Of a stretch of 64,000 bases of DNA, positions 51,498 to 61,821 are shown one piece after another. Position 1 is the first letter of the stretch. Each line of letters opens with the position of its first letter. The DNA is taken from positions 12,951 to 76,950 of the forward strand of contig JBJMWI010000143.1 of the NCBI GenBank assembly GCA_045810225.1, in the 5' to 3' direction. The position numbers were made by a program, and so were the translations under genes. The notes beneath the pieces are model-generated. The model had not been told where the DNA came from and ran no database searches. It saw only the letters and a list, made by a program, of their open reading frames with translations. Source of the DNA: Burkholderiales bacterium (GTDB lineage: Bacteria > Pseudomonadota > Gammaproteobacteria > Burkholderiales > JACQAP01).

Positions 51498-52025
51498 ATG
51501 ATTGATCGTGATGGCTATCGCCCGAATGTAGGAATCATTCTTTGCAATGGCAGAAACGAGGTTTTCTGGGGTAAGCGGATAAAGGAACATGCTTGGCAAT
51601 TCCCGCAGGGCGGGATCAAGGGCGGTGAAACGCCCGAGCAAGCGATGTACCGCGAACTCAAGGAGGAGATTGGCCTCGATCCATGCCATGTGAAGATACT
51701 CGGGCGCACACGCGAATGGTTGCGCTACGACGTGCCGCAGAACTGGGTGCGGCGTGAAACCCGTACCCAGTATCGCGGGCAGAAACAGATCTGGTTTTTG
51801 CTCAGGCTGGTGGGCAGGGACTGCGACGTTTGCTTGCGGCAGTCAGAGCATCCCGAGTTTGATGCCTGGCGTTGGCATGATTACTGGATTCCGTTGGAAA
51901 ACGTCATCGAATTCAAGCGGGACGTTTACCAGCGTGCGTTGCAGGAACTGGTGCGATATCTGAATGGCCCGCGTATGAAGCGCGACGCCGGCGCACGGGG
52001 GCCGCTCACGCCGTTGGAGGGATGA
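51498..52025 (+). CDS. rppH: RNA pyrophosphohydrolase
   Basis: [22 protein letters not shown], Nudix box [29 protein letters not shown]. Confidence 0.97.
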
Positions 52026-52455
52026 TTTCCACCAGTTCCGGCGCCAGAGCCGGCGTTTCCAGTTCTGCGATCACGCTCAGGACTTTGCCTTTCTCTTTCG
52101 AATAATCAGCCGCATCCTGCAGTGCGGCCAGTGCCGCGGCGAATTCCTCTGGTTCCGTTCTGGCAAAATTCGATGCCTCGCGCAGTAACAACAGCGTGCC
52201 GCCTTCCCCAGGCTCAAGCTCGATCAGGCAGTCGTAGAAAGCATCCCAGTTGTGGCCAAAATAGTCCGGGAAACGCAGCGCCTGCGCGACGGCGTTCAGG
52301 AACGCCTTTTTGTCTCGGACTGCCGCAAGGCGCACGGGGATAACGGTCTTGCCACGTTGCACCGCCAACTCCAGCGCGCGGTCTGGTATGGCGCCGTGGC
52401 AGCGGAACACCCCGGTCACCTGCGATGTAATGACATCGCTGAACTGTTTTTTCAT
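52006..52455 (-). CDS. Barstar family ribonuclease inhibitor
   Basis: [26 protein letters not shown]; ATGA overlap with the RNase gene. Confidence 0.88.
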
Positions 52456-52856
52456 TCGACGATCCGCCTGAAGCTGCCGTAGTGGTCTTCGCTGTACCAG
52501 AATTGGCCGGTACTGGAAGCAACGATACGTCTGCCACCTCTGTCATGTCTTCCCGGTGTCTTTACGGTGTATTCCCGATAAGTGCCGCGCGGCGCAATCG
52601 GCAAGAGGCGCTCGCGATTGGAGAAGACAGTACCGTCCTGCGCATATGGAAACGGGCCTCCTTGCTTGATCAACGCCAGCGTCTCGCGCGCCTGTTCGGG
52701 CAATTCGCTTACCTGCACGATGCCACTGTCGCTCGAGAGTGTTCGTGCCCAGACGCTGTTGCCGGGTGCAAGCAGGCCAAGTCCCAGAAACAAGGCTACG
52801 CCAAACAATCGAACCGATCGGCGCCATGCTTCGTGTGCTTTCAACCAATCGATCAA
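52452..52856 (-). CDS. Secreted guanyl-specific ribonuclease (RNase Sa/N1/barnase family)
   Basis: Hydrophobic N-terminus; LPEQARETL.LI..GGPFPY..DG.VF.NRE..LP, YREYTV.TPG..DRG.RRIV, YSEDHY.SF; TTG start after AAAGGT. Confidence 0.9.
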   Translation of the reverse strand: MIDWLKAHEAWRRSVRLFGVALFLGLGLLAPGNSVWARTLSSDSGIVQVSELPEQARETLALIKQGGPFPYAQDGTVFSNRERLLPIAPRGTYREYTVKTPGRHDRGGRRIVASSTGQFWYSEDHYGSFRRIVE

Positions 52857-53032
52857 TGCATTACCTTTTAGCGGCAGCGGCTTGCCGTGATCATCGTGGA
52901 GAACGTTATTAAGCTGCCGTTTTGCTTTAGCAGCTCGTCCAAAACGAAATTTCGGCTTGAAAACAAGACTAACGGGAGGGTACCATGGGCTCCATGTGCC
53001 AACTGGCTGAACGGGCACGAGGAAATTGATCC

Positions 53033-53974
53033 ATGCCACGTCGCAACGAATACGATGTAACAGACAGGATCAATACCACCGATCCAGCCTCGGTCAATGG
53101 GGAAGTCAATCGCATCTTCCTCGAGCTGTATCCAAATGCATCAACGCATCTACTGAACCGCGTGTTTCGGGATTTGGCGCGTTTGCTCTCCGGAGACTAT
53201 CCCGGCTATCACGCTTGCGACACCAGCTACCATAACCTGCAGCATTCGCTCGACGTCACACTGGCCATGTCGCGCCTCATGGACGGCTACGAGCGTACAC
53301 GGGAACGCCGCCCGGAACTAGGTGCGCGGCTGTTCCGATTCGGCATCGTGACCGCGCTGTTTCACGACATAGGTTATCTGCGCAAAGTAAACGATACCCG
53401 GCATAAGAACGGCGCGGAATACACGTTCAAGCACGTTTCGCGCGGTGCGAAATTTTTGGAAGATTACATGAACCGCATCGGCATGGCGGAACTCGCACCG
53501 ATTGCCTCGCGCATCATCCATTTCACCGGTTACGAAAAAGCCATCGAAAAAATTGATGTGCCGAACATTTCGTTTCGGCTGATTGGAAGCATGCTTGGCA
53601 CGGCCGATATCATTGCGCAGATGGCCGATCGCTGTTATCTGGAAAAGTGCCGGGACCGCCTGTATCCGGAGTTTGTGGAGGGCGGTCTGGCAGCGCGTGA
53701 TGACCAGGATCACCGTGCCAGCGTGATGTTCAGGTCTGTGGAAGAATTGATGTCGTCGACTCCGCGCTTCTACAGGACCGCGCGGGCGCGCCTGAATGAG
53801 CAACTTGGCGGCGCCCATGGCTACGCGGGCAAGCATTTTGGCGGTCAGAACCTTTACCTCGACGAAATCGACAAGAACATGCAATACGCGTCATCCGTGG
53901 CGGGTCAGCGTGACTTGTCCCTGTTCCGTCGCGAGCCGCCAAAACTAGGCGAAGAGGCGTTGGCGATCGTTTAG
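53033..53974 (+). CDS. HD-domain metal-dependent phosphohydrolase
   Basis: YHNLQHSLDV, ALFHDIGY, HVSRG, TADII, LYPEF. Confidence 0.82.
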   Translation: MPRRNEYDVTDRINTTDPASVNGEVNRIFLELYPNASTHLLNRVFRDLARLLSGDYPGYHACDTSYHNLQHSLDVTLAMSRLMDGYERTRERRPELGARLFRFGIVTALFHDIGYLRKVNDTRHKNGAEYTFKHVSRGAKFLEDYMNRIGMAELAPIASRIIHFTGYEKAIEKIDVPNISFRLIGSMLGTADIIAQMADRCYLEKCRDRLYPEFVEGGLAARDDQDHRASVMFRSVEELMSSTPRFYRTARARLNEQLGGAHGYAGKHFGGQNLYLDEIDKNMQYASSVAGQRDLSLFRREPPKLGEEALAIV

Positions 53975-56124: not shown

Positions 56125-56883
56125 ATGGAAAACAACAAGGTTGCTTTGGTTACGGGTGGTTCACGCGGCATCGGCCGCGCCATCGTCGAATTGTTGGCTG
56201 AGCGCGGTTTCCGCGTTATGTTTACCTATGCAAGCCGCGTAGCTGATGCCACTGAAGTAGAGGCTGCAATTAACAAGACTGGCGCACAAGCCAGCTGCAT
56301 TCGCGCCGATGTCGCCGAAGCCCGATCCGCGAAGAACGTTGTGCAGGCCACGCTGGCCAAGTTTGGCCGCATCGACGTTCTGGTCAATAACGCCGGCACG
56401 CATTTGCCTGATGTCGCCATCGCCGATACGTCGGCCGAGGAATGGGATCGCGTGCTGCAGACCAATCTGTATGGCCCGTTTCACATGGTGCAGGCTGTAC
56501 TGCCGCACATGCGCGCGCGCAAGAACGGCAACATCGTCAATCTTTCTTCCAACATTACCAATCGCTTTCCGCCGCGTAATGCTGCTTACACGGTGTCCAA
56601 AGTCGGCTTAGAGGCGTTCACGCGTATTCTGTCAAAAGAAGAAGGCCGTAACGGCATTCGCGTGAATGCGGTGGGCCCCGGACCCATTCGCACCGACATG
56701 CTCGAAGAAACCATGGTGAAAATTGGTCCCGAGCGGGCCGATGCATTCATCAAGTCAGTTCCACTCGGACGCAAAGGTGAGCCCAGGGAAATCGCCGAGG
56801 CCGTAGCGTTCCTGGTGTCGGATGCGGCGAGCTACATGACCGGACAAATCGTCTTTGTTAACGGCGGTGGACCGGGCGGTTAG
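56125..56883 (+). CDS. Short-chain dehydrogenase/reductase (FabG-like)
   Basis: TGGSRGIG, DVLVNNAG, NLSS, YTVSK, VNAVGPG.I.TDM. Confidence 0.92.
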   Translation: MENNKVALVTGGSRGIGRAIVELLAERGFRVMFTYASRVADATEVEAAINKTGAQASCIRADVAEARSAKNVVQATLAKFGRIDVLVNNAGTHLPDVAIADTSAEEWDRVLQTNLYGPFHMVQAVLPHMRARKNGNIVNLSSNITNRFPPRNAAYTVSKVGLEAFTRILSKEEGRNGIRVNAVGPGPIRTDMLEETMVKIGPERADAFIKSVPLGRKGEPREIAEAVAFLVSDAASYMTGQIVFVNGGGPGG

Positions 56884-56902
56884 CTGATACGAGTGGGTGC
56901 GA

Positions 56903-57343
56903 TTACATTCGGTTCAGAAGCTTTTCCAGACTCAGGCGCATGCCGGAGGGCACGGCGACTGGGTTGCGTGAGGCGCGGTCCACGTACACGTGCACGAAAT
57001 AACCCTGCGCCGCAGCCGTTTGTTCGTCATTCCTGAATAGTCCAACTTCATAGCGCACGCTGCTATTGCCAATTTTTGCGACACGCAGTCCGGCGTGAAC
57101 GATGTCCGGAAAAGTTAACGGCGCAAAGTATTCGCATTGCGTTTCCACCACCAGGCCGATAACCGTGCTGGTCGGCACATCCAGAACACCTTGCTCAATC
57201 AGGTATTGATTCACCACCGTGTCGAAATAGCTGTAGTAGACGACATTGTTTACGTGGCCATACACGTCATTGTCGGCCCAGCGCGTGGGAATGGCCTGGA
57301 AATGCCGGTAGGCATGATGGAGTTCCGGTTTTGGTCGAGGCAT
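56903..57343 (-). CDS. Acyl-CoA thioesterase (4HBT/YbgC-FadM hotdog family)
   Basis: TRWADNDVYGHVNNVVYYSYFD, GLVVET.C.Y, GNSSVRYE, FVHVYVDR. Confidence 0.88.
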   Translation of the reverse strand: MPRPKPELHHAYRHFQAIPTRWADNDVYGHVNNVVYYSYFDTVVNQYLIEQGVLDVPTSTVIGLVVETQCEYFAPLTFPDIVHAGLRVAKIGNSSVRYEVGLFRNDEQTAAAQGYFVHVYVDRASRNPVAVPSGMRLSLEKLLNRM

Positions 57344-57359
57344 TTGTTTTTTTCCGTTA

Positions 57360-58271
57360 TCAGTGGGTGCCGGCCTGGTCGGACGTGTCACTCAGGCGGC
57401 GCATGTGCTTCCAGTTCACCGCGAGCAGTCCGGCCGCCACGACGACGACCATGCCGAAGAGCGTCATTGGCTCCGGAAAATCGCCGAATGCAAGATAAGC
57501 CAGAAGCGTGGACCAGATCAATTGAGAATAAACGAAAGGCGCCAGTGTAGACGGGGACGTGTGCTCCATGGCGCGGATCAGCAGTAAATGGCCCAAGCCG
57601 CCGAGCAAGCCAATGCACACGACAAAGCCAGCCTGAACCAGAGTAGGCGTAACCCAATGCAACGGCACCGCAATGCTGGTGATGACTGCGCCCACAACCG
57701 CGGTATAGAAAAGCGTTGTATACGGATGTTCGCGTCCGGAAAGTCTGCGGGTAACGATCTGATATACGCTGAACAGGACAGCAGTTGCCAGTGGAAAGAC
57801 GGCGGCGAGTGAAACTACTCCACCGCCTGGCCGCATGATGATTAACACGCCGGTAAACCCAAGCAAGACGGCGAACCATTGTCGCCGGCTGACCTTGTCG
57901 CCGAGCATCGGGCCGGACAGCAACGCAGTCAGCACCGGACCCACAAAACTAATGGCTGCTGCTTCCGCGAGCGGCAGATAGCGAAGCGCGAAATAGAAAA
58001 AGATAGTGCTGGCCAGCAGCAGCACGCCGCGCAACATCTGCAGCCAAAGATGTGACGTCCGCAACAGCCTTGTGCCCATGCGCGGGCCCAGAAGGACGGC
58101 CATCACGACGATATGGACCATGTAGCGCGCCCACATCAACGCGGACATCGGGTAAGACTTCAGCATGTGCTTGGCGAGCGTATCCATCGCCGAAAACATG
58201 AATACCGCAGCCATGATCAATGCGATGCCGCGCAGTGTGCGGCGGTGATGCTGCGCTTCGGTTACCGTCAT
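57360..58271 (-). CDS. DMT/EamA family transporter
   Basis: ~10 TM segments; MDTLAK, LPLAEA.AI.F..P, GFTGVLII.RPG, LAPF.Y.QLIW. Confidence 0.9.
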   Translation of the reverse strand: MTVTEAQHHRRTLRGIALIMAAVFMFSAMDTLAKHMLKSYPMSALMWARYMVHIVVMAVLLGPRMGTRLLRTSHLWLQMLRGVLLLASTIFFYFALRYLPLAEAAAISFVGPVLTALLSGPMLGDKVSRRQWFAVLLGFTGVLIIMRPGGGVVSLAAVFPLATAVLFSVYQIVTRRLSGREHPYTTLFYTAVVGAVITSIAVPLHWVTPTLVQAGFVVCIGLLGGLGHLLLIRAMEHTSPSTLAPFVYSQLIWSTLLAYLAFGDFPEPMTLFGMVVVVAAGLLAVNWKHMRRLSDTSDQAGTH

Positions 58272-58375
58272 TTGCGAAAACGTGTTATCGCGGATCCGGT
58301 GACTGTCGCGTGCAACGTGATGGAACGGACAAGCTCATTTTTTCGCTACTCAATAGTCTGCTGACATTTAGGTAT

Positions 58376-59656
58376 TTACGGCTTGTGTCGCAGCACCTCG
58401 CGGCCGGCGAAAGTGGTTTTGCCGCCGAGCGCTTCCTCGATGCGTAGCGCTTCATTCCATTTCGCCATGCGTTCGGATCGCGCGAATGCGCCGACTTTTA
58501 GTTGTCCGGCGTCCCATCCTGCCGCCAAATGTACGATGGTAACGTCCTCAGTTTCACCAGAACGGGCCGAGACAATGGTGCCCCAGCCGGCGCGCTTCCC
58601 TGCATCCAGCGCCGCCTTTGTTTCGGTGACCGTGCCGGCCTGATTCGGCTTGATTAGCACGGCATTGCAAGCACCTGCGTCCGCTGCAGCCTTCACTCGC
58701 GTGGCGTTGGTCACCAGAAAATCGTCTCCAATGATTTGGACTCTGTGCCCGGCCTCAGCCGTGAATTTTTTCATGCCTTCGGCGTCATCTTCGGCTAATG
58801 GGTCCTCGATCGATACAATAGGGTAGCGGTCAAGCCAGCCGAGCAGCATTTCGCAAAAGCCATCGCTGTCCAGGTCGCGGCCTTCGAAACGATAGCGGCC
58901 GTCCCGCCCGAATTCCGAGGCCGCGATATCGAGCGATATGCCGACATCCTTGCCCGGGCGGTAGCCGGCCCGCTCGATCGCACGCATAAGCATGGTAAGG
59001 GCGGCTTCGTTGGAATCGAATGCCGGCCAGAAACCACCTTCGTCCGCGACACCTTGCAACTTGCCCGCCTCTTGCATCAACTGGCCTGCAGCCCGATAGA
59101 CTTCCGCCGTAACGGCGGCGGCTTCGCTGAAGCTGTGTGCCGCCAGCGCAATGACCATGAAGTCCTGGATATCCACACGGCGTCCTGCATGCGCGCCCCC
59201 GCCAAAGATCTGTATCTCCGGCAAAGGCATGCGCACGCTCTTGCCCTGCGCGAGATACGCGTACAGCGGCACGCGGTGCGCGCCGGCCACGGCATGCAGC
59301 ACCGCCATCGAAGTCGCAATCATGGCGTTGCCGCCAAGCCTGGATTTGTTCGGCGTGCCGTCCCAGGCGATCAGTTCATCATCGATTTCAGCTTGGCGCA
59401 GCGCATTGCGTCCAAGCAGCAAGCGGGATATTTCGTTGTTGACGTGTGCGACTGCTTTGGTCACGCCCTTGCCGCCGAACGTTTCGCCACCATCGCGCAG
59501 GTCGACTGCTTCATGCGATCCACGTGATGCTCCGGCTGGCGCGATAGCGCGTCCGACTGCGCCTCCTGCGACATGCACTTCAACTTCAACCGTAGGCTGT
59601 CCGCGCGAATCCCAGACTTGCCGGCCATGGACTTTCGTGATGGTGGTGTCGGTCAT
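58376..59656 (-). CDS. Enolase paralog with divergent active-site residues
   Basis: DSRGQPTVEVEV, PAGASRG, DEGG, LDIAASE, SIEDP, GDD, IKPNQ.GT, RSGETED, QLK.G..RSER; QEF->QDF and SHRSG->SARSG; start ATG 59656. Confidence 0.9.
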   Translation of the reverse strand: MTDTTITKVHGRQVWDSRGQPTVEVEVHVAGGAVGRAIAPAGASRGSHEAVDLRDGGETFGGKGVTKAVAHVNNEISRLLLGRNALRQAEIDDELIAWDGTPNKSRLGGNAMIATSMAVLHAVAGAHRVPLYAYLAQGKSVRMPLPEIQIFGGGAHAGRRVDIQDFMVIALAAHSFSEAAAVTAEVYRAAGQLMQEAGKLQGVADEGGFWPAFDSNEAALTMLMRAIERAGYRPGKDVGISLDIAASEFGRDGRYRFEGRDLDSDGFCEMLLGWLDRYPIVSIEDPLAEDDAEGMKKFTAEAGHRVQIIGDDFLVTNATRVKAAADAGACNAVLIKPNQAGTVTETKAALDAGKRAGWGTIVSARSGETEDVTIVHLAAGWDAGQLKVGAFARSERMAKWNEALRIEEALGGKTTFAGREVLRHKP

Positions 59657-59687
59657 CAATAGGTTCGCTCTCGTAACGAGAAGGTTG

Positions 59688-60683
59688 TCACACGAGCTGG
59701 CGTTGCCACGCCATCCGTACGCCGGCAAGGCTGTCAACCGGCCGCAGCAGCAGCCCGCGTGCTGCGCGGCGAACGCGTTCACGCTCTGCATCGGTCGTGA
59801 TGTATTCCACTGGCGATCTGCCGTCGATGCGACCGAGCAACAGACCTGGCAGCAGGTGTGCGGCACGTTCCTCGATATCGTCGCGTGCTTCCCAGGTGAC
59901 CTTGTCAAGGTAGCTTGCCGCGAGCACGTCGAAAGTTTCCAGGTAACGCGGTTGCCACTGCGGCTTCCAGAGGCACTTCAGCAGCAGATGATTAAGACAG
60001 AACGCAAGATCGAAAGCCGGATCACCATACCAAGCGCACTCCGCGTCCAGGAATACCGCTCCGTGCGGGCCGGTCAGAATATTTTTTGGGCTCACATCGC
60101 CATGCACGAGTGCTTTCTTGGTGGCACCGGTGATCCGGACCAGACTTTCCAGCCGGTCAGCGCAATCTGGATGTTTTTTCGCGGTAGCCGAAAGATAAGG
60201 CTCGAGCCGGATGGGGAAAAAGATGTGATCGGTGGGAAATTTTTGCGCGACATCGATTTGACCTGCGGTGTGCGCGTGAATCGAACAAATACGCTCACCG
60301 ACCTCGCGGGCGGTGTGGTCCACGATTACGCCGTCACGCAACTGATTTTTCCAGACGGGATAATGCGCCTCGTCCAGGAATTCCATGGCGAACATGCCGG
60401 TTTCGCGATCTTCACCGAGCACTTTTGGTACAGCGAGCGGTTCAATGCCAGCTGCGGTACGCATCCATTCGATCTCATAGCGGTTGCGTTCGACCGGCGC
60501 TTGCCAATCCATCTGTACGCGAAGCTTGGCAAGAGCCCGCTTGATACAGATCGGTCCACTTTTGAGATCGACGCGCGAAATGTCCGAGGATACGCCCCCG
60601 GTTAACGGCGTAATGGCGGGCACTTCACCGGGCTGAAGCAACTTCATGCGCCCCAGCGCAGCAAGGTAGGAGTCGTTGCTCAT
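59688..60683 (-). CDS. APH/choline-kinase-like phosphotransferase (methylthioribose kinase-like)
   Basis: LTGGVSSD loop, IKRAL.KLRV..DW.AP.ER, MEFL hinge, HGDVSPKNIL, FLDAECAWYGDPAFD. Confidence 0.85.
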   Translation of the reverse strand: MSNDSYLAALGRMKLLQPGEVPAITPLTGGVSSDISRVDLKSGPICIKRALAKLRVQMDWQAPVERNRYEIEWMRTAAGIEPLAVPKVLGEDRETGMFAMEFLDEAHYPVWKNQLRDGVIVDHTAREVGERICSIHAHTAGQIDVAQKFPTDHIFFPIRLEPYLSATAKKHPDCADRLESLVRITGATKKALVHGDVSPKNILTGPHGAVFLDAECAWYGDPAFDLAFCLNHLLLKCLWKPQWQPRYLETFDVLAASYLDKVTWEARDDIEERAAHLLPGLLLGRIDGRSPVEYITTDAERERVRRAARGLLLRPVDSLAGVRMAWQRQLV

Positions 60684-60923
60684 TACTATTCGGGAAAGAT
60701 TGCGGCTTCGCTAAACGGCACCCTCGCGGCGCAGGCGATTAAAAGGCGCGTCACTCGGGCGCTTCAGCGGGACAGGACTTTATCACACCTTGCCGGTTGC
60801 CTTGCTGTCCAGACGAGCACAATCTGTTTTGGCCAGCCTGCGCAATGGGTCATGGAAAAGCGTCCTTCGTGCAGCGTGCGCGCCGTCGAATGTCGTTGGC
60901 AAATCAAGAAAACTGAAAGTTCA

Positions 60924-60953
60924 TTGACAAGCAAATGAATCAATCAGTATTGT
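60924..60953 (+). promoter_or_regulatory. Putative sigma70 promoter for parA-like gene
   Basis: TTGACA-N18-TATTGT preceded by an A-rich UP-like tract, ~45 bp upstream of ATG 60997. Confidence 0.6.
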
Positions 60954-60996
60954 GATTTCTTTACACTACCGTGGGTAATTCGCGGCGACGGTCTGC

Positions 60997-61821
60997 ATGG
61001 CCAAGATCGCGGTTTTCAACCAGAAGGGCGGAGTCGGCAAGACGACGACTTCACTGAACCTCACGGCTGCCCTTGCCCGGCGGGGGTACAACCCCCTGTC
61101 GATTGACCTTGATCCTCAAGCCCATTTGTCATACGTCTGCGGCAGCACCGTAAACAATGCGGACGATTCAATCTTTGGCTTCTATCAGAGCATCAAACCG
61201 CTGACCCAGCTGATACGTCCTGCAACTGGCGGTTGGCTTGTGATTCCCGCACACGTCGAACTATCCAAGGTGGACACCCAATTTGGTAAAGGGCCCAACA
61301 TTCTCAACCGGTTGAACACCGGTATCGTCAAAGAAAACCTCAATACCGGCCGGCCAATCGTGCTTGACTGTTGCCCGGTGCTTGGCGTGCTCAGTTTGAG
61401 TGCCATTTTTGCTTCCGATCGCGTGCTGATCCCGGTTTCCACGGATTATCTGGCAGTGCACAGCGTATTCCAGGTTGAGAAGACCTTGAGGGCGCTTGAG
61501 CACGTGCTTAAAAAGCGCGTGATGCGGCGTTACGTCATGACGCGGTTCGACAGCCGGCGCAAGATGTCGCATCAGATTTACGACGAGCTCAAGGAAAGGC
61601 TCAGCGACGAAGTTTGCGAAACGCGCATCACCGAGAATGTCAGCATTGCGGAAAGCCCGGCCTCGAAAAAAGACGTTTTCGCCCACTCACCCGAAAGTCG
61701 TGGCGCGCTGGACTACGAGGCATTGCTGGAGGAATTAGTGCAGGTAGGTTTTATCGAAAAGCGCGAGCGCGAAGTCGTCACGGAATCGCCGGTCAAGGAT
61801 TTTCTTCGTTCGCCTGTCTAG
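60997..61821 (+). CDS. ParA/Soj family ATPase (orphan)
   Basis: Deviant Walker A NQKGGVGKTT, IDLDPQAHL, LDCCP.LG, LIPV..D.LA, RITEN..IAESP. Confidence 0.9.
   Translation: MAKIAVFNQKGGVGKTTTSLNLTAALARRGYNPLSIDLDPQAHLSYVCGSTVNNADDSIFGFYQSIKPLTQLIRPATGGWLVIPAHVELSKVDTQFGKGPNILNRLNTGIVKENLNTGRPIVLDCCPVLGVLSLSAIFASDRVLIPVSTDYLAVHSVFQVEKTLRALEHVLKKRVMRRYVMTRFDSRRKMSHQIYDELKERLSDEVCETRITENVSIAESPASKKDVFAHSPESRGALDYEALLEELVQVGFIEKREREVVTESPVKDFLRSPV

Follow-up and report, generated by a model that had tools for sequence, protein, structure and literature searches.

The window analysed here, a stretch of 64,000 nucleotides (nt) from a Burkholderiales bacterium (assembly GCA_045810225.1, contig JBJMWI010000143.1, positions 12,951 to 76,950), carries on its minus strand a two-gene unit whose first member encodes a small-molecule kinase of MtnK-like APH fold (P0002, 331 aa, positions 59688-60683) and whose second encodes a variant enolase paralogue (P0001, 426 aa, positions 58376-59656). 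The two genes represent a real, conserved and uncharacterised enzyme couple built from known families, and a mechanism for it can plausibly be given in outline: we estimate at about 0.5 the probability that the pair constitutes a self-contained module acting on a glycerate-like acid and giving phosphoenolpyruvate (PEP) or an analogue of it. An earlier reading of this DNA, made from the letters alone (hereafter the original prediction), had placed the end of the kinase 31 bp before an enolase homolog of some 426 aa, and this arrangement holds, with a 31-nt spacer (59657-59687, minus strand, read from the sequence) separating the kinase stop codon from the enolase ATG. The start of P0001 was set at the ATG at 59656; the listed 510-aa open reading frame (ORF), which begins at an upstream TTG, overlaps the kinase. 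The further statement that no characterised pathway involves this gene pair agrees with a literature search that found no paper describing a variant enolase coupled to a kinase, a glycerate kinase of APH type, a phosphosulfolactate lyase of enolase type or a kinase for L-glycerate.

The proposal depended on the adjacency of kinase and enolase being conserved in other genomes, and this is the case across phyla and in gene fusions. Among the sampled Burkholderiales genomes, the kinase is present in 60 of 301 (53 of the 269 high-quality ones), in tallies that, like those given below for enolase and MOFRL glycerate kinases, include the unpublished genomes G205, G294 and G026. The enolase adjoins the kinase in all the loci fetched from this order (29/29 and 20/20). 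A scan with one genome per species yielded at least 591 kinase matches, the best 80 of which include Alphaproteobacteria, Acidobacteriota, Dehalococcoidia, Binatia and a metagenome-assembled genome of the Salibacteraceae. Of these 80 loci, which come from other orders and phyla, 76 contain the enolase, and the remaining four end at a contig edge right after the kinase. The enolase is thus nearby in every testable fetched locus (96/96), on the same strand in 95 and directly adjacent in 92, with the kinase preceding the enolase in 91 loci, following it in 4 and lying on the opposite strand in 1. Across the 95 same-strand loci, the gap between the two alignments has a median of 23 nt and does not exceed 60 nt in 69. 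The linkage extends to plasmid and chromid records of cultured strains, where the variant enolase lies no more than 7 kb from the kinase in 6/6. As a separate observation, three plasmid records of the haloarchaeal genus Haladaptatus match the kinase at E <=1e-30.

Gene fusions provide a second form of linkage. A survey of proteins longer than the kinase (E <=1e-20) returned 129 matches, and among the 120 listed about 100 combine Enolase_N, Enolase_C and APH domains, with the kinase at the N-terminus, the enolase at the C-terminus and, in some of them, long low-complexity linkers in between. The fused proteins of Polaribacter staleyi, Marinomonas sp. and Vibrio halioticoli retain the Q-D-F and S-A-R-S-G motifs discussed below. 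Other fusions (P0196, P0203, P0217, P0219, P0220, P0223, P0224) join the kinase to a ketopantoate-reductase-family reductase, UxuA, an SGL lactonase or FAH, which ties the kinase family to sugar-acid chemistry.

P0001 is a member of the enolase family by domain content, score and fold. It matches Enolase_N (PF03952) with 168.3 bits and Enolase_C (PF00113) with 299.5 bits, and its score of 491.8 bits against TIGR01060 exceeds the cut-off of 300, lying 188 bits under that of the housekeeping copy. Its AlphaFold2 (AF2) model (mean predicted local distance difference test score, pLDDT, 89.5), in which the least confident stretches are three active-site loops, superimposes on the Escherichia coli, Mycobacterium tuberculosis and Chloroflexus enolases with template-modelling (TM) scores of 0.95-0.97 and root-mean-square deviations of 1.4-1.7 A. 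Residue positions were derived from alignments to solved enolases and to 150 cluster representatives, and are given in yeast enolase numbering. P0001 retains H159, Q167, E211, D246, E295, D320, K345, R374, S375 and K396 (with H156, E206, D243, E284, D311, K336, R365, S366 and K387 as its own equivalents), and the metal ligands, K345, E211, K396, R374, S375 and H159 are all present in the 36 kinase-linked enolases that were tabulated. Against this conserved background, S39 is replaced by A41, T41 by R45, N155 by G152, E168 by D165 and H373 by A364; the N-x-x-N-G-G motif becomes Q-x-x-G-G-G, and an alanine replaces the glycine before DEGG. The alignments hence agree with the original prediction both on the catalytic set that had been described as intact and on the QDF, SARSG and QxxGGG changes. 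They also answer its question of whether a QDF/SARSG clade would co-occur with the kinase, since Q-D and S-A-R-S-G are found together in 36/36 tabulated kinase-linked enolases, so that the signature of P0001 is not a product of chance.

The signature marks a large branch of the enolase family. Among the 150 nearest representatives of 50%-identity clusters, 82 carry E168 and H373, 39 carry D and A, and several carry D and G, the variant branch amounting to about a third of the clusters. In a FastTree phylogeny of 154 rows, in which the signature columns were still included, a branch with support 99* parts all 78 canonical (N-E-H) rows from 52 of the 53 variant rows, and the variant rows fall into two subclades, a G-D-A subclade that contains P0001 together with the marine fusions, and an S-D-A subclade that contains the loci with enolase-then-kinase order. 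When the five signature columns were removed, a quick IQ-TREE tree of 32 variant and 28 canonical rows required two label changes; a single variant clan was not rejected by the approximately unbiased (AU) test (p 0.774), and the constrained tree was better by 19.9 log-likelihood units. On these alignments, the variant enolases form one old, deep clan beside the canonical ones. P0311, an enolase with the S-D-A signature, was placed among the canonical enolases in the FastTree phylogeny (support 90, unstarred), and forcing it into the variant clan was not rejected by the AU test.

The changes that define the clan are few. Counting as a switch any position where canonical enolases are at least 85% conserved and the variants differ consistently, E168 becomes D in 53/53 variant rows, H373 becomes A in 48/53 and G in 5/53, and the glycine before DEGG becomes A in 44/51, with E and H retained at 168 and 373 in 78/78 canonical rows. 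The consistent switches are limited to these three positions; N155 becomes either G or S, and some members of the variant clan still have S39, which binds the second metal. Conversely, 52 positions are at least 90% conserved and identical between both groups. In the established mechanism of enolase, the E168 and H373 side of the pocket holds the C3 hydroxyl. Given so few consistent switches and so many unchanged positions, the change is confined to that side, and the expectation that the altered residues would lie on the leaving-group side is therefore borne out as a family-wide signature across the 53 variant rows.

The variant enolase is a paralogue and coexists with a standard one. On another contig of the source genome, which is 94.7% complete, a second enolase scores 679.9 bits against TIGR01060 and is 46.9% identical to P0001; it comes after the end of pyrG and is flanked by kdsA and ftsB, precisely the context in which the original prediction expected a separate housekeeping eno. 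Across the order, all 60 kinase-positive genomes have, in our reading, two or more TIGR01060 matches, as opposed to 24 of 241 kinase-negative ones. These 24 genomes cluster in two families (f35 and f41), and their extra enolases may be other, unlinked paralogues, split genes or contamination. A standard glycerate kinase is likewise present. The source genome encodes a class-II glycerate 2-kinase of the MOFRL family (PF05161) on contig C22, away from the pair, and no match to the GlxK family (PF02595) was found in this 94.7%-complete assembly; P0002, with its APH fold, belongs to neither of these glycerate 2-kinase families. By our count, MOFRL kinases occur in 54/60 kinase-positive and 122/241 kinase-negative genomes of the order, and there is no anticorrelation between the pair and glycerate 2-kinase across these genomes. 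The possibility that the pair is the sole glycerate route of its genome was considered and rejected, since a MOFRL glycerate 2-kinase is found in the source genome and in 54/60 carriers.

P0002 is a member of the APH domain family (58.3 bits against PF01636, gathering score 23.2), and its match to the methylthioribose (MTR) kinase model TIGR01767 is partial and below threshold (56.1 bits, cut-off 275). The catalytic motifs that had been read as intact HGDxxxxN and D-x-E elements correspond to HGDVSPKN at residues 194-201 and D-A-E at 213-215, and both are invariant, together with K48 in IKRAL, in an alignment of 11 relatives. Sequence-profile searches of the PDB matched only the MTR kinases 2pyw and 2olc and a corramycin phosphotransferase, and a protein-cluster search with the kinase retrieved just generic 'phosphotransferase family' clusters. 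The best structural matches of its AF2 model (pLDDT 92.1) are again MTR kinases (2pyw, 2pun, 2olc; TMq 0.78-0.85, 16-18% identity), followed by PsiK, LxmK and corramycin phosphotransferase. P0002 hence combines an MtnK-type fold with the HGD...N loop and the DxE motif. The many invariant arginine and lysine residues of the kinase would fit an acidic substrate.

The neighbourhoods of the pair suggest that it works where sugar-acid catabolism ends, in chemistry of the hydroxypyruvate or glycerate type. Neighbour counts refer to the 96 loci that contain both genes and to distances within 4 kb of the pair unless stated otherwise, and family scans covered roughly 180 neighbour proteins. The sole widely recurring neighbour family is a D-isomer 2-hydroxyacid dehydrogenase, seen in 20/96 loci and located on the same strand within 1 kb in 13, whose nearest solved relatives are glycerate dehydrogenase/glyoxylate reductase and phosphoglycerate dehydrogenases. 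FAH proteins and short-chain dehydrogenases/reductases (SDR) were each found in 7/96 loci, TctC proteins in 5/96, VOC proteins in 4/96 and PNPOx proteins in 3/96. In non-phosphorylative sugar-acid routes, an FAH hydrolase releases pyruvate and a short hydroxy acid, and operons that flank the pair with enzymes of this kind, IlvD-like ones among them, are seen in several genera. The Sinorhizobium chiapasense operon comprises an ABC transporter, a UxuA-like dehydratase, an SGL lactonase, an unknown gene, kinase, enolase, FAH and SDR; that of Rhodococcus opacus PD630 consists of FAH, dehydrogenase, enolase, kinase and a further FAH; and in Cupriavidus necator C39 a LacI regulator, a transporter of the major facilitator superfamily (MFS), FAH and dehydrogenase are followed by the kinase, with the enolase 5.7 kb away. 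In Inquilinus ginsengisoli, a pentonate dehydratase, a XylB-like SDR, an AraD1-type FAH and a second SDR precede kinase and enolase, with a 2-oxoglutarate-semialdehyde dehydrogenase further on, and a plasmid of Rhizobium sp. CIAT894 has the order LysR, ppc, dehydrogenase, kinase. Two smaller regularities were also observed. In L048, L090 and L116, the gene immediately preceding the kinase on its strand encodes a pyridoxamine-5'-phosphate oxidase, and in loci of one family (L040, L052 and L053) the dehydrogenase and the kinase are separated by a gene for a 268-aa protein that looks membrane-bound and has no match in Pfam or NCBIfam.

In the proposed scheme, the MtnK-like kinase would phosphorylate the 2-hydroxyl of a glycerate-like 2,3-dihydroxy (or 3-substituted 2-hydroxy) acid, and the variant enolase, through its two-metal site, Lys345 and Glu211, would then take the C2 proton and expel the C3 group. 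The product would be PEP, or a close enol-phosphate analogue, and would pass into central metabolism; the acid itself could be supplied by the end of non-phosphorylative sugar-acid catabolism or by the D-2-hydroxyacid dehydrogenase, reducing a hydroxypyruvate-like 2-oxo acid. The pair is best read as two consecutive steps in view of its fusions, its operon order and a catalytic machinery that is still intact, and the paralogue status of the enolase, the linkage and fusion across phyla, the leaving-group signature and the absence of a published pathway make phosphorylation followed by elimination its natural form. The pathway put forward in the original prediction is hence retained for the couple as such, on the basis of linkage, fusions and signature, and given very little weight in its sulfolactate version, which lacks support from gene context. 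Ordinary 2-phospho-D-glycerate is probably not the phosphorylated intermediate. A close relative of D-glycerate is favoured as substrate because carrier genomes almost always hold a standard glycerate 2-kinase and a housekeeping eno, because the leaving-group side is remodelled in every member, and because fusion suggests an intermediate that is kept apart from glycolysis. The favoured candidates are L-glycerate, in which case Lys345 and Glu211 would swap their base and acid roles on the mirror-image substrate, and a four-carbon 2,3-dihydroxy acid, which could be L-threonate, D-erythronate or a 4-deoxy form of either. Some precedent for four-carbon substrates is provided by KEGG, which, as noted in PMC4192683, lists canonical enolase as also acting on a phospho-erythronate.

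A number of observations weigh against this proposal, to which there is also a plainer alternative, in which an APH-fold D-glycerate 2-kinase and an enolase that dehydrates 2-phospho-D-glycerate form a catabolic duplicate of GckA/TtuD and Eno. Yeast enolases mutated at H373 or E168 keep proton-exchange ability or some activity, so the changes at these positions need not mean a new substrate. The dehydrogenase is missing in 76/96 loci and in the window itself; ppc adjoins the pair in a single examined plasmid locus, that of Rhizobium sp. CIAT894, and in none of the other 100 loci; and the neighbours as a whole fit plain D-glycerate as well as any analogue of it. The nearest solved kinases phosphorylate an anomeric sugar hydroxyl and not a 2-hydroxy acid, and the genome counts overstate independence, given that carrier genomes are related to one another. 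For a duplicate D-glycerate route it can further be argued that, E168 and H373 apart, all residues required for dehydration of 2-phosphoglycerate are kept, that P0001 exceeds the TIGR01060 cut-off, that the commonest neighbouring dehydrogenase is nearest to glycerate dehydrogenase/glyoxylate reductase and phosphoglycerate dehydrogenases, that the FAH, SDR, lactonase and dehydratase neighbours belong to routes yielding three-carbon hydroxy acids among their end products, and that the order of ppc, dehydrogenase and kinase in Rhizobium mirrors the HprA, GckA, Eno and Ppc series of the serine cycle. Nonetheless, a second enolase would be redundant for such a route, given the MOFRL kinase of the source genome and of 54/60 carriers and the canonical eno of 60/60, and the fixation of D168 and A/G373 across a deep clan and the frequent fusion, with its suggestion of an intermediate not shared with glycolysis, also speak against it. 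On balance, the duplicate D-glycerate route is rather unlikely, if well short of negligible.

The special case advanced in the original prediction, in which the enolase would release sulfite from 2-phospho-3-sulfolactate formed by the kinase and so give PEP, draws on the location of the altered residues on the leaving-group side, on the D-type dehydrogenase, which could reduce sulfopyruvate, and on the presence of TctC-type and TRAP carboxylate transporters near some loci. It is rendered highly improbable by the neighbourhoods, since no family handling sulfolactate, sulfoacetaldehyde or sulfite was detected among the roughly 180 neighbours scanned, the single thiamine-pyrophosphate enzyme reached 205 bits against a cut-off of 620 for sulfoacetaldehyde acetyltransferase, and the recurrent neighbours are sugar-acid enzymes; the literature search, too, returned nothing relevant on phosphosulfolactate and enolase. 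A resistance function, with an APH-type kinase that inactivates a natural enolase inhibitor and an insensitive enolase copy that replaces the target, would accord with an APH fold typical of antibiotic kinases, with the presence of corramycin phosphotransferase among the few PDB sequence matches, and with the fact that the changed residues contact the part of enolase inhibitors that mimics the C3 hydroxyl. Yet the kinase has at least 591 species-level matches, the enolase accompanies it in every testable fetched locus, often in sugar-acid operons with dehydrogenases and transporters, no biosynthetic cluster or efflux theme recurs, and resistance kinases are not usually fused to a paralogue of their target, all of which makes such a function decidedly improbable. 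The same low standing is given to an arrangement in which the two proteins do not act consecutively, the kinase working on a sugar, as MTR and 5-deoxyribose kinases do, or on a protein, and the enolase having a structural, regulatory or moonlighting role. MTR kinases are indeed the nearest structures, and canonical enolases are known in protein complexes (RNase E and others among the structural matches); however, the whole enolase catalytic apparatus has been conserved under long divergence, fusion and operon order are typical of consecutive enzymes, and no methionine-salvage genes (mtnA and the like) were seen among the scanned neighbours of the pair, the genome itself not having been searched for them.

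The remaining genes around the pair in the window are of local character. Downstream of the enolase lie a gene for an EamA/DMT transporter (57360-58271, minus strand, Pfam EamA) and one for a 4HBT hotdog thioesterase (56903-57391, minus strand, Pfam 4HBT_2 and 4HBT, with a weak YbgC/FadM family match) that overlaps the end of the EamA gene. Both are regarded as local accessory genes: EamA neighbours on the same strand within 1 kb occur in 11/96 loci, of which 8 are near relatives of the window, and 4HBT neighbours in 12/96, of which 11 are. Upstream of the kinase there is a divergent ParA-like ATPase gene. In 14 related loci (L035 and L036 among them), a divergent glpK is located between the ParA-like gene and the kinase; in the window (60684-61821) and in L034, no glpK is present at that place and the ParA-like gene directly adjoins the kinase. 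The GlpK, ParA, aldo-keto reductase (AKR), SDR and zinc-dependent alcohol dehydrogenase (Zn-ADH) neighbours seen in the window reflect local synteny of near relatives only. A 484-aa ORF antisense to kinase and enolase (59151-60605, plus strand) was discarded as a shadow frame. A scan for promoters and terminators over 56500-61100 gave sites no more numerous than those in shuffled sequence. The stretch is present in soil metagenomes from 12 studies, and four soil metatranscriptome runs contribute five short contigs (198-260 nt, 0-1 mismatches), of which three match the kinase, one the enolase and one the thioesterase. These contigs, among which uncovered stretches carry no meaning, attest presence in RNA libraries and are compatible with transcription, without proving it or a single transcript. 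Farther away, at 52006-53039 (minus strand), genes for a barstar-like protein (149 aa) and a barnase-type ribonuclease (195 aa) overlap, in an arrangement that resembles a secreted RNase and its immunity protein and is partly conserved for both genes in relatives (L036, L038). A 313-aa ORF at 53033-53974 (plus strand), with no Pfam match, has counterparts at 57-82% identity beside the Zn-ADH gene in L034, L036 and L038.

To our knowledge, enolase proper has been treated as a single-function family, and annotation pipelines label all the variants met here as phosphopyruvate hydratase, both in source names and in RefSeq products. The existence of a deep and widespread branch in which the leaving-group side carries a fixed change and a kinase is an obligatory partner indicates that the single-function assumption probably fails and that many database 'enolase' labels may name the wrong reaction. 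It is possible, though we advance it only tentatively, that the variant clan is the first branch within the enolase family proper to have diverged in function, with its kinase processing an acid closed to the standard enzymes, in which case thousands of 'phosphopyruvate hydratase' annotations would be wrong. On that reading, sugar-acid routes that run through lactonase, dehydratase, SDR and FAH hydrolase would close onto PEP without losing the phosphate of ATP. Knowledge of the substrate would supply a missing last step to the breakdown of sugar acids by non-phosphorylative routes in bacteria of soil and rhizosphere, among them Rhizobium, Sinorhizobium, Azospirillum, Cupriavidus and Rhodococcus, would set many annotations right and would also provide a natural example of the retuning of an enolase active site.

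The pair can be set against several known systems. With canonical enolase (EC 4.2.1.11), P0001 has in common the two-domain fold, the metal ligands, K345, E211, K396, R374 and S375; it differs in its residues at E168 (D), H373 (A), N155 (G) and S39 (A) and before DEGG (A), in its membership of a separate deep clan, in being always linked or fused to a kinase, and in lying outside the pyrG-kdsA-eno-ftsB context. MtnK (TIGR01767; 2pyw, 2olc) is the best match of P0002 in both sequence and structure and shares with it the fold, the HGDxxxxN loop and the DxE motif; P0002, however, is only 16-18% identical to it, is some 60 residues shorter and is partnered by an enolase instead of methionine-salvage genes. 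In terms of logic, the closest parallel is the route formed by hydroxypyruvate reductase, glycerate 2-kinase and enolase, with or without Ppc, which makes up the lower part of the serine cycle and of the glyoxylate, tartrate, glucarate and non-phosphorylative Entner-Doudoroff pathways. Both would proceed from a 2-oxo acid to a D-2-hydroxy acid, its C2 phosphate and PEP, the D-2-hydroxyacid dehydrogenase is the commonest neighbour of the pair, though seen in 20/96 loci and not in the window, and ppc adjoins the pair on a single Rhizobium plasmid. In contrast to that route, the pair uses an APH kinase unrelated to the MOFRL (GckA/TtuD) or GlxK/GarK enzymes and a dedicated variant enolase, and, since carriers usually hold the standard enzymes too, it constitutes an addition to them and not a substitute. 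Lastly, the LxmK/LxmY complex of class V lanthipeptides (PDB 9dk1-9dk3) offers a parallel in enzymology: LxmK is among the nearer structural relatives of P0002, and there, as in the scheme proposed here, phosphorylation by an APH-fold kinase precedes an elimination carried out by a second enzyme. In that system, the substrate is a peptide and the phosphate itself is the leaving group, whereas in the pair described here the phosphate most likely stays on the product, because the phosphate-binding Arg374 and Ser375 of enolase are kept.

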